64,000 nt of DNA, taken from Candidatus Altimarinota bacterium (GTDB lineage: Bacteria; Patescibacteriota; Gracilibacteria; 1-14-2-50-48-13). Numbering within the stretch: the first letter of the stretch is position 1; each line of letters begins with the position of its first letter. The stretch lies in contig JBKBWQ010000001.1 in NCBI GenBank assembly GCA_046314355.1, forward strand, positions 64,001 through 128,000, written 5' to 3'. Made by a program: the position numbers and the translations under genes. The notes beneath the pieces are model-generated. The model was not told the origin of the DNA. It did no database searches and was given only the letters and a program-made list of their open reading frames with translations. Shown here in pieces: positions 28,026-44,878 of this stretch.

Positions 28026-28112
28026 GGGCAAATGGCGAAATTGGTAGACGCACTAGCTTCAGGTGCTAGCGGTAGCAATACTGTGAGAGTTCGAATCTCT
28101 CTTTGCCCACCA
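28026..28112 (+). tRNA. tRNA-Leu (CAG)
   Basis: Acceptor GGGCAAA/TTTGCCC, anticodon stem CTAGC/GCTAG with loop TTCAGGT, long variable arm, GAGAG-TTCGAAT-CTCTC, encoded CCA. Confidence 0.97.
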
Positions 28113-28259
28113 TTCTTCGCTGCTAGACGCAGCTACGAATGGCACGGCCATCATGGAATTATTTCGCAAGCGAAATGACTATAAGATGCACGAAGAAGAA
28201 TGTCCCTCGTAGCCTGCACCTGAACATAAAGGTTGTAGTTATTTGTGGCGTAGAGGGAC
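28110..28259. repeat. Structured palindromic element at the tRNA-Leu 3' end
   Basis: CCATTC-TTCGC-hairpin-GCTAC-GAATGG (28110-28142), ATTTCGC-AA-GCGAAAT (28161-28176), and an oppositely oriented GTCCCTC-GTAGC...GCGTA-GAGGGAC (28202-28259). Confidence 0.7.
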
Positions 28260-28418
28260 TCCCAGGCTTAAAGAATAGATGTATATTGGTGCGCTGTGAG
28301 TCTACTCAGGCTCTTTTCAAAACACACCGTAAAAAATTTATCCCTCACTACTAAGTACTCTCACTATCACTCACACTCCGAGCCTATTCATGTATAACTT
28401 TGATTCTCATCACAAACA

Positions 28419-28450
28419 AAAAAAGCTCTTCAGTATTGAAGAGCTTTTTT
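28419..28450. terminator. Bidirectional intrinsic terminator
   Basis: AAAAAAGCTCTTCA-GTAT-TGAAGAGCTTTTTT. Confidence 0.88.
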
Positions 28451-28458
28451 AAACGAAT

Positions 28459-28854
28459 CTATTTATTGAATAGAGGCTTATACTTATCCCAGTTTCTCCA
28501 AAGGAAGTAGATATTCAACACAAGTAGTAAGTCTGCCATGATTGCTCCTGGTGTAAATAACCCTGAGTCAAGAAATGCATGGAATCCTACGATATTTACT
28601 GTAAATGGGAGCAAAAGTAATGCAGCGAGTGCTTCGCGGCGGATCCATAGACATACTACTACAGCGGCAAAGACGATGGCTTCGATAAACATTATATATT
28701 TACTGTCCATAAGCAGTTTGATGAACGCAAACGCTTCAGGAGTACCGTACATGTCAGCAGTTGGTGCAGGGAATATGCCTGTAACACCTAGGATAGGCAT
28801 GATGAGGAGCAATGAAAGGAGTACTTTGCAGATAATGTCGATGACTTTTTTCAT
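28459..28854 (-). CDS. DoxX-like membrane protein
   Basis: Several TMs, ALLLLPFTVNIVGFHAFLD, YKPLF C-terminus; ATG at 28854. Confidence 0.75.
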   Translation of the reverse strand: MKKVIDIICKVLLSLLLIMPILGVTGIFPAPTADMYGTPEAFAFIKLLMDSKYIMFIEAIVFAAVVVCLWIRREALAALLLLPFTVNIVGFHAFLDSGLFTPGAIMADLLLVLNIYFLWRNWDKYKPLFNK

Positions 28855-29023
28855 AGGAAAGATGAGGTAATAATATTGCTCAAATCCTAGCGTAAAATCG
28901 TGAAATGACAAGATTTTTCACTGTTATAGATTGAAAAGATGCTCTTTTATTGAGATAATTATAAAGTAGTATTACAGTTAGATAGATCTCATATATCTCA
29001 TTTATTAAGTAGTAAATAATCTT

Positions 29024-44732: not shown

Positions 44733-44759
44733 AAAAAAATAACTTCATGAATGAAGTTA
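44733..44759 (-). terminator. Terminator downstream of tRNA-Asp
   Basis: TAACTTCAT / ATGAAGTTA hairpin, with an A-run on its left (U-tract on minus strand). Confidence 0.6.
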
Positions 44760-44800
44760 CATAATATCGATGTGCCATTCAATACCCAAAGGGCGAAGAA

Positions 44801-44878
44801 TGGCGGAATGGACGAGACTCGAACTCGCGACCTCGGCAGTGACAGTGCCGCGCTCTAACCAAACTGAGCTACCACTCC
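44801..44878 (-). tRNA. tRNA-Asp (GTC)
   Basis: Reverse complement GGAGTGG..GCTCAGTTTGGTTAGAGC..CGGCA-CTGTCAC-TGCCG..GCGAG-TTCGAGT-CTCGT-CCATTCC-G-CCA. Confidence 0.97.

Follow-up and report, generated by a model that had tools for sequence, protein, structure and literature searches.

A gene-less hairpin element at the CCA end of a tRNA-Leu gene in a Gracilibacteria genome and its likely relation to a small GIY-YIG nuclease cassette

The stretch of DNA considered here, called the window throughout, comprises 64,000 nucleotides from the genome of a Candidatus Altimarinota bacterium (contig JBKBWQ010000001.1, positions 64,001 to 128,000) and contains two tRNA genes, tRNA-Leu(CAG) and tRNA-Asp(GTC), as recognised by ARAGORN and Rfam. 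At the CCA end of the former lies a structured element which extends from the CCA itself (28110) to 28384, some 275 nt in all. On balance, this element is best explained as a gene-less copy, similar to a miniature inverted-repeat transposable element (MITE), of the hairpin module belonging to a small selfish cassette that carries a minimal GIY-YIG nuclease gene and occupies the CCA ends of stable-RNA genes. The element is identified with fairly high confidence, while confidence in the mechanism of its spread is moderate to low. The complete cassette consists of a first hairpin (hairpin a), a UGG(C)..(G)CCA segment, a segment denoted L' and a second hairpin (M2), followed by a gene for a single-domain GIY-YIG protein of 80–85 amino acids, the whole standing 3' of the CCA of a tRNA or transfer-messenger RNA (tmRNA). 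It is placed after the CCA, pairs its UGG with that CCA, is linked to a nuclease gene whose open reading frame (ORF) is frequently decayed, occurs also as gene-less copies, and is present in one genome and absent from another of the same genus. The parts of the window copy are as follows.

28026–28112, + strand: tRNA-Leu(CAG), with its CCA encoded at 28110–28112 (ARAGORN; Rfam RF00005, 56.5 bits).
28110–28142, + strand: hairpin a (unit U1), with a basal helix CCATTC (28110–28115) : GAATGG (28137–28142) that includes the CCA of the tRNA.
Interior of hairpin a: a 3 × 3 internal loop, TTC/TAC, and the inner hairpin GCTGC-TAGAC-GCAGC (sequence and fold).
28140–28150, + strand: mini-palindrome TGGCACGGCCA, which has its TGG in common with hairpin a and recreates a GCCA end (sequence).
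28159–28178, + strand: small spacer hairpin between hairpin a and M2 (sequence and fold).
28191–28202, + strand: L' segment (..CGAAGAAGAATG), complementary to CA plus the first bases of the element (alignments).
28203–28259, + strand: hairpin M2 (unit U2), TCCCTC-GTA-GCC ... GGC-GTA-GAGGGA (sequence and fold).
28260–28329, + strand: module M3, a spacer common to eight other full copies and, in part, to two more (nhmmer census).
28330–28384, + strand: module M4 (...CACTCCGAGCC), the right end of the repeat, equivalent to the right arm of an AT-rich hairpin trailer termed 'fam2'.

An earlier note, made from the letters of this DNA alone, had described part of this arrangement. The strings that it quoted after tRNA-Leu and tRNA-Asp are present as written, the pairing of GAATGG back onto the CCA-TTC of the tRNA is found both in the sequence and by RNAfold, and the small hairpin that it placed between the two larger ones is that at 28159–28178. 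Its second hairpin, in the opposite orientation, is M2, which is approximately the reverse complement of hairpin a. At other loci, the covariance model described below gives a second, lower-scoring match on the reverse strand, offset by about 19 nt. The extent of 150 nt given there (28110–28259) was too short, as the repeat continues to 28384. When positions 28103–28262 are folded with RNAfold, both hairpins form and the CCA is paired, with an energy of −52.5 kcal/mol (z = −3.56) that none of 200 shuffles equalled. The pattern CCATTCTTCGC-N6-16-GAATGGCAC has two matches in the window, at 28110–28145 (+) and 44772–44803 (−), and none in 100 dinucleotide-preserving shuffles. Across loci, the mini-palindrome keeps the form TGG(C/T)-N2-4-(G/A)CCA, TGGT..ACCA variants among them. 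In sister copies, the spacer hairpin has 8–9 bp followed by a T-run and thus resembles a terminator; the T-run has been lost from the window copy, in which scans of the + strand found neither a terminator nor a promoter. Between the right end of the element and an ORF at 28459–28911 (−) there is a separate 14-bp hairpin (28419–28450) with T-runs on both sides, which is probably the terminator of that ORF.

The second match of the pattern belongs to tRNA-Asp, on the other strand.

44801–44878, − strand: tRNA-Asp(GTC) (ARAGORN, Rfam).
44772–44803, − strand: short variant of U1, CCATTC-TTC-GCCC-TTT-GGGT-ATT-GAATGG-CAC, with no U2.
44733–44759, − strand: terminator-like hairpin and T-run after the U1 variant (read by eye; no scan was made on this stretch).

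This variant is a weak match to the covariance model (E = 0.0098). The element had been described as shared between tRNA-Leu and tRNA-Asp, which stands in so far as a short variant is present at the latter; the sharing, however, extends to many tRNAs and not to tRNA-Asp alone. Within the source assembly (1.69 Mb, 38% G+C, of which the main contig, C1, makes up 1.62 Mb), CCA is encoded by all 37 tRNA genes on C1, and there are 13 full composite copies of the repeat unit M1 + M2 + M3 + M4, where M1 stands for hairpin a, the TGGCAC(A)GCCA mini-palindrome, the spacer hairpin (with its T-run in most copies) and L'. All 13 lie directly after a CCA: 12 abut different tRNAs (Leu-cag, Ser-gga, two Met, Glu-ttc, Leu-caa, Leu-taa, Leu-tag, Arg-cct, Ala, Tyr and Cys), and the thirteenth, at C1:958802, abuts a tRNA-like 3' remnant. 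The window copy is 73–80% identical to its sisters over about 280 nt. An nhmmer census finds M1 + M2 as full copies at no other site of the genome, and the covariance model recovers the same 13 at E ≤ 1e-13, along with weaker relatives; the count of elements runs from 13 to about 19.

Among the weaker relatives, a variant of the form CCATG..hairpin..CATGGCACGCCA, with a long-range complement of its own, follows tRNA-Gln(ttg) as two tandem units (C1:923191) and tRNA-His (1591461), and stands also at 1415448; a degenerate copy follows a tRNA 3' half at C1:1060990. In the RNase P RNA gene (Rfam RF00010, 149 bits), where helix P12 is extended by 55 nt, this extension contains right after a GCCA, at C1:1260936–1261045 (−), a U1-like unit, CCAGTC-TTC-GCC..GGC-TAC-GACTGG-CAAGCC, followed by an L'-like segment (covariance model E = 5e-5). 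A further U1-like unit with compensated arms (CCAGTC...GACTGG-CAGGCCAG) is located at C1:464704–464808 (+), inside a 461-residue ORF of the opposite strand. The covariance-model scan of the genome found no dispersal of copies in ordinary intergenic space. When the element was compared by BLAST with 30 relatives, the tRNA part alone was matched.

Beyond the source genome, an exact-pattern scan for TTCTTCGC-N8-14-GCTACGAATGGCA in one genome per species gave 113 matches at 108 loci. Among the 80 loci listed with titles, 67 are from Verrucomicrobiota, nine from the candidate phyla radiation and four from other or unclassified organisms, the carriers in the candidate phyla radiation being Falkowbacteria, Peregrinibacteria, Peribacteria, Saccharibacteria and 'Patescibacteria group'. 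CCA directly precedes 108 of the 113 matches; 61 abut a tRNA found by ARAGORN, of at least 21 anticodon types, one follows a tmRNA, and many of the remainder follow a tRNA 3' fragment. One of the four other or unclassified loci, labelled Streptosporangiaceae, is without the CCA and looks like chance. Necessarily, since the search pattern fixes the outer arms, those positions are uninformative in this set of matches. In the class to which the source belongs, the covariance model matches 45 of 151 genomes. The helices are arranged in two permuted layouts, with M2 either after hairpin a or nested in its loop, and six loci (L027, L035, L096, L113, L126 and L055) contain tandem arrays of U1 in which each unit starts after the GCCA of the preceding one. 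A viral collection gave one match, such that the cassette appears to be chromosomal and not typically phage-borne.

Several Verrucomicrobiota loci (L022, L026, L038, L049, L093 and others) contain a separate conserved element of about 150–200 nt, bounded by an intact tRNA on one side and by a 19-nt copy of tRNA positions 58–76 on the other. It opens with a terminator hairpin whose stem takes in the CGCCA of the tRNA, and includes a stretch complementary to tRNA positions 61–68 and a palindrome of the TGGCATGGCCA type; it has no Rfam match.

Pairing in the module is maintained by compensatory change. The covariance model was built from 67 copies, and its pairing statistics were taken over 79 matches (74 distinct rows) in an alignment which was fitted to the model and in which some rows are antisense or duplicates. 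Pairing holds in 94.6% of cells, and compensatory change is seen at 20 of the 21 pairs. None of 500 shuffles reaches any of the five covariation measures, and a control in which the partner was slid by 1–3 columns gave 31–45% paired. By helix, the two of hairpin a (helices 1 and 2) are 97.7% and 92.9% paired, with compensatory change in 11 of 12 pairs, and the two of M2 (helices 3 and 4) are 91.8% and 98.6% paired, with compensatory change in all nine. A separate count over 64 cleaned rows gives 1130 Watson–Crick, 28 G-T, 9 A-C and 61 other combinations. The pairing of CCA with UGG spans the junction between tRNA and element with three pairs on each side, and the three element bases next to the CCA covary tightly with the three before TGG (TTC/GAA, GCC/GGC, GAC/GTC, GGC/GCC, ACC/GGT and TTT/AAA). 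Segments L and L', an alternative pairing, are Watson–Crick paired in 502 of 552 cells, but changes in the variable triplet are compensated only in part (for instance, one in eight for the GCC type), and strict conservation of an L:L' helix was rejected for that reason.

On the sense strand of M2, G-T combinations outnumber A-C by 26 to 5, an asymmetry which indicates that the hairpins fold, and are selected to fold, on the tRNA-sense strand, as either RNA or single-stranded DNA (ssDNA), which the asymmetry does not tell apart. The suggestion that M2 mimics hairpin a on the bottom strand was discarded, the wobble excess being on the top strand. A search of the window module with Rfam 15 at E values up to 10 returned no family, and in ten other loci, at E up to 0.01, no family matched within the module, tRNA, tmRNA and RNase P RNA being all that was recognised in or beside the loci. 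Self-cleaving ribozymes that cut at their own 5' end (hepatitis delta virus-like, hatchet) were dropped as candidates since no Rfam model for them matches in the module, as was a hammerhead-like CTGATGAG in the M3 of two copies, which is not conserved among copies. The earlier note had asked for further copies, for covariation and for a comparison with Rfam: further copies exist, the covariation is strong and there is no match to a known family.

The link to a nuclease was mentioned in that note, in the form of small GIY-YIG genes beside such palindromes, and it holds. In 22 of the 113 matches a small GIY-YIG ORF lies on the same strand some 40–390 nt downstream; 25 such ORFs were found in these loci altogether, the other three being beside the motif in a different arrangement. 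At every locus where an ORF follows the module, the linked gene is a GIY-YIG gene. The proteins match Pfam PF01541 and no second Pfam domain, and a search of the nuclease against NCBIfam gave no match. Intact ORFs encode 80–85 residues; about 10 of the 25 are cut short, frameshifted or without their original start. Among the invariant residues are Tyr5, Tyr17, Arg27, His31 and Glu63, which we take to be the GIY-YIG catalytic set. Sequestration of the Shine–Dalgarno sequence by M2 was rejected as a role for that hairpin, since the start codon follows M2 after anything from a few nt to more than 100 nt, a spacing too variable for such a role. The correspondence between nuclease clade and hairpin variant was not used as evidence of co-evolution, since its clearest instance, the six CCGGC-type loci, comes from one host family (f7) and is thus confounded.

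The source genome itself retains two decayed nuclease genes of this kind. One, a PF01541 match with a single in-frame TAA (E = 1.6e-14), comes right after the tRNA-Leu(tag) copy, and the other, frameshifted and with an unlike C-terminal part, comes after the variant copy at C1:1415448. At the other 12 of the 13 full copies no trace of a nuclease ORF was seen (all E > 2), nor was a GIY-YIG remnant detected in M3 of the window copy. The idea that M3/M4 are themselves a decayed nuclease ORF was abandoned, as the tRNA-Leu(tag) trailer alone scores. More widely, 133 of 201 sampled genomes of the class have such genes, up to nine per genome. At 18 of 29 GIY-YIG loci from other genomes of the class, a same-strand tRNA or tmRNA precedes the gene by less than 450 nt, and with covariance-model matches added, a module or a tRNA/tmRNA end is upstream in 22; four of the remaining seven have less than 170 nt of upstream sequence in their contig. 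In the 260 nt after the stop codon, inspected by eye at 21 class loci, a hairpin-like or repeated module was seen in three (L138, L141 and L152).

Two further observations concern GIY-YIG genes as such. The source genome contains a third small gene of this kind (C1:1282927–1283200), frameshifted and of another type, with the tail ..REKQIKNKKRDWKKRLI..NPEWKDL and no tRNA near. GIY-YIG ORFs with two to four in-frame TGA codons and no other stops occur in L146 and L148 (genomes G194 and G167), G151, G030 and G088, which suggests that TGA is read as a sense codon in some members of the class. Together with small genome sizes, these codons make it probable that the class belongs to the candidate phyla radiation.

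What the cassette does to a tRNA locus is seen in a comparison of two genomes of the same genus, G018 (empty) and G055 (filled), at the tRNA-Ala locus, where the flanks are 91–94% identical; this one pair of loci constitutes the presence/absence evidence. In the filled genome the cassette, module plus ORF, measures about 367 nt, starts right after the CCA and ends just past the stop codon. The same interval in the empty genome is taken up by a 66-nt AT-rich imperfect hairpin, which is the native trailer. The cassette thus replaces the native trailer from exactly after the CCA. In the source genome, trailers of the fam2 type follow tRNA-Leu(gag), Ser(gct), Asn, Phe, Arg(tcg), Lys(ctt), Lys(ttt) and Ile and, in part, Val(tac). 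In these trailers the CCA is followed directly by a short A/T hairpin, and this by a long, imperfect one (GAGTAATTAGT.. / ..ACTATCACTC) whose loop contains a T-run; similar trailers are present in the relatives L013 and G018. Because the G018 trailer resembles fam2, the right arm of which is M4, M4 would be the remnant of the native trailer and M1–M3 the incoming part. M4-like repeats rich in TTACT (..AATTACT..ACTGAGCC) are also found before several tRNA genes, those for Arg(tcg), Lys(ctt), Lys(ttt), Thr(tgt) and Leu(caa), where they stand a short way upstream of promoter-like CTTGC/CTTGA boxes.

Taken as a whole, these observations are best fitted by the proposal of the earlier note that this is a non-autonomous element targeted to tRNA 3' ends: all 13 full copies in the genome stand after a CCA, 12 of them without a nuclease ORF, and complete units with a GIY-YIG gene exist elsewhere. 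A role of the hairpins in recognition by the nuclease, also proposed there, is plausible by analogy with the Ssn family of nucleases (Chenal et al. 2025, Nat Commun; PMC11893778). On the same analogy, the nuclease would recognise the sense-strand hairpin as ssDNA, for example on the non-template strand of heavily transcribed genes, and would then nick near the junction of CCA and element, after which repair or gene conversion might copy the cassette into other CCA ends. The window copy, having no nuclease, would be a passenger module that doubles as the trailer of its tRNA. Exposure as ssDNA on the non-template strand would fit the confinement of the module to genes for tRNA, tmRNA and RNase P RNA, its fixed orientation and the absence of a replication-strand bias.

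There are also several points which weigh against such a cassette and its proposed mode of spread. The left end falls exactly after the CCA at 12 tRNAs, which ordinary homologous repair does not explain since the acceptor stems differ. The full copies are without bias towards either replication strand (7 leading and 6 lagging), and those within the genome may have been homogenised by gene conversion rather than placed by recent transposition. Mismatches in the inner hairpins show no excess of G-T over A-C (6 and 5, in 66 distinct hairpins), and in folding energy the advantage of the sense over the antisense strand is small, about 1.5 kcal/mol, with the sense strand ahead in 43 of 67 related sequences. 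The solved structures nearest to the protein profile are UPF0213 (5e-8) and SLX1 (8e-8), which may place the nuclease in a branch other than Ssn. Moreover, at most loci the hairpins appear to lie upstream of the gene only, in contrast to the NTS-ssnA-NTS arrangement of the Ssn system (PMC11893778).

A different reading of the hairpins, possible though rather unlikely as the principal account, is that they act mainly as RNA, forming a co-transcribed, cis-acting 3' trailer in which the CCA is sequestered within a helix, which directs endonucleolytic release of the tRNA or termination and gives the nuclease mRNA a protected 5' leader; in this way the cassette might ride on a strong tRNA promoter and leave the tRNA unharmed. 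The constant position of the module on the tRNA-sense strand directly after the CCA speaks for this, as do the slightly better folding of the sense strand, the hairpin and T-run between units in sister copies, and the U1-like unit in helix P12 of RNase P RNA, which is necessarily transcribed and tolerated. The occurrence of the same helices in two permuted layouts is likewise a feature of RNA motifs. The G-U wobble enrichment on the sense strand of M2 (26 against 5) points the same way, but it does not discriminate, because ssDNA hairpins, too, tolerate G-T better than any other mismatch. The varying distance between M2 and the start codon makes a common translational switch unlikely, and the one characterised single-domain GIY-YIG family does not bind RNA (PMC11893778). 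How the module would arrive at new CCA ends is left unexplained, such that an RNA function is compatible with the cassette and not exclusive of it. Indeed, a role for the RNA in trailer processing, termination or as an mRNA leader fits the data equally, and the two may coexist.

The selfish cassette can also be taken further, into a proposal that is speculative and, as a whole, unlikely. In this extended form the hairpin module would be the targeting half of a two-part machine, aiming through a folded strand a GIY-YIG protein of 80 residues that has no DNA-binding domain of its own. The UGG would pair with the CCA on the exposed non-template strand, and cutting followed by repair would insert the unit after the CCA and recreate a GCCA; this would amount to a hitherto unknown class of mobile element, driven by GIY-YIG, guided by a hairpin and directed specifically at genes for tRNA, tmRNA and RNase P RNA. 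Should the reading as a selfish cassette hold, systems of a mini-GIY-YIG and a hairpin would gain a natural case with a defined and universal target, the stable-RNA CCA end, and with a simple, testable rule of recognition, of three base pairs on the target side and three covarying base pairs on the element side. It would also account for three features of genomes in the candidate phyla radiation and Verrucomicrobiota: their many tiny 'GIY-YIG' ORFs, trailers that are identical although the tRNAs before them are unrelated, and CCA-hairpin arrays in tandem. In this regard, the Ssn authors argue for paired hairpin and nuclease specificities as ssDNA tools (PMC11893778).

It is very improbable that the module is instead a host-owned signal for tRNA 3' processing or termination, kept for its benefit to tRNA maturation and with the nuclease genes as secondary lodgers. 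Its presence at 12 of 37 chromosomal tRNAs and the conservation of the CCA pairing across phyla would suit such a signal, yet 25 of those 37 are without the full module, only 45 of 151 genomes of the class have it, and within one genus the same tRNA-Ala works either with the module or with an unrelated native hairpin trailer. In addition, a near-identical core in distant phyla, together with decaying ORFs, has the look of horizontal spread. A dedicated tRNA 3'-processing structure, which the earlier note had offered as an alternative, also leaves the linked nuclease gene and the presence/absence polymorphism unexplained.

It might be supposed that the module is a scar or attachment (att) site of integrase-borne islands targeting tRNA 3' ends, which is hardly to be expected from the evidence. 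At C1:1060990–1069520, tRNA-Thr(ggt) is followed by two integrase genes, and a tRNA 3' half with a degenerate module lies about 8.4 kb away; tRNA 3' fragments likewise precede the module at many Verrucomicrobiota loci (a 19-nt copy of positions 58–76). However, no duplication of tRNA ends is seen around the 13 full copies, the integrase genes of the genome (322190 and 1067968–1069060) are near none of them, and the shared sequence, which begins past the CCA and is the same behind unrelated tRNAs, cannot therefore be an att core. The fragments with their modules fit better as native trailers displaced by later, integrase-borne island insertions. That a Y1 (HUH) transposase moves the module, as a miniature element of the REP/REPIN or IS200/IS605 type, is equally hard to credit: there is an inverted pair of imperfect palindromes with GTAG and the genome has Y1_Tnp genes, but the PF01797 matches (C1:772701 and 827760–828114) are near no copy, the linked gene is always GIY-YIG where an ORF follows, the lagging strand is not favoured (7 against 6) and the copies are not dispersed in ordinary intergenic space. 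Template switching of a reverse transcriptase onto CCA ends was dismissed, there being no RVT_1 in the genome.

Among known systems, the nearest to the proposed cassette is that of the Ssn nucleases with their NTS/SRM hairpin repeats (Chenal et al. 2025; PMC11893778). SsnA is a single-domain GIY-YIG protein of 94 residues that binds its hairpin repeat as ssDNA only, and on one strand only, does not bind RNA and makes its cut upstream of the hairpin; copies of the repeat flank its gene 'like an insertion sequence', in the authors' own likening, and the protein clade is that of CDD cd10448 (GIY-YIG_unchar_3) (PMC11893778). The two systems are alike in having a tiny single-domain GIY-YIG protein, of 94 residues there and 80–85 here, and in the position of its gene beside a directional hairpin repeat that also has gene-less copies in the genome (PMC11893778). 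They differ in the repeat itself, which there has the NTS consensus and here a CCATTC-TTC-GC..GC-TAC-GAATGG core, and in number and placement, with 13 to about 19 copies here, all at stable-RNA CCA ends, against hundreds there (PMC11893778). Moreover, the hairpin here base-pairs with the CCA. A palindrome of the dRS3 type (ATTCCC-N8-GGGAAT) occurs once in the source genome (ATTCCCGCGCATGCGGGAAT, C1:1363550–1363569), away from any copy. On a search for terms, the main text of the Ssn paper contains no mention of tRNA, Verrucomicrobia or Patescibacteria (PMC11893778).

Homing endonucleases offer a second comparison, in that a selfish GIY-YIG gene lies in intergenic space beside conserved tRNA genes and is present or absent between close relatives with conserved flanks, here in one pair (G018 and G055). 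SegB acts in the tRNA gene region of T4-like phages, and the Seg enzymes possess a DNA-binding domain and are far longer. In contrast, the present protein consists of the catalytic domain only, at 80–85 residues, is accompanied by a conserved structured nucleic-acid module, and belongs to a cassette that is chromosomal and not phage-borne. SegB is named in PMC13096335.

With the REP/REPIN-RAYT and IS200/IS605 systems the difference lies in the enzyme, which here is a GIY-YIG hydrolase and not a Y1/HUH transposase, the Y1 genes of the genome being unlinked. In IS608 the end of the element base-pairs with its target, much as the UGG of the element does with CCA. As in those systems, there are hairpin repeats, here presumably recognised on one strand, and gene-less derivatives that outnumber the enzyme gene (PMC11893778). 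No description of a GIY-YIG cassette linked to the tRNA CCA was found in the literature searched. The combination of a hairpin repeat with a single-domain GIY-YIG protein is thus already known, and what is new is the obligate placement after the CCA, the base pairing with that CCA and the spread through the candidate phyla radiation and Verrucomicrobiota.

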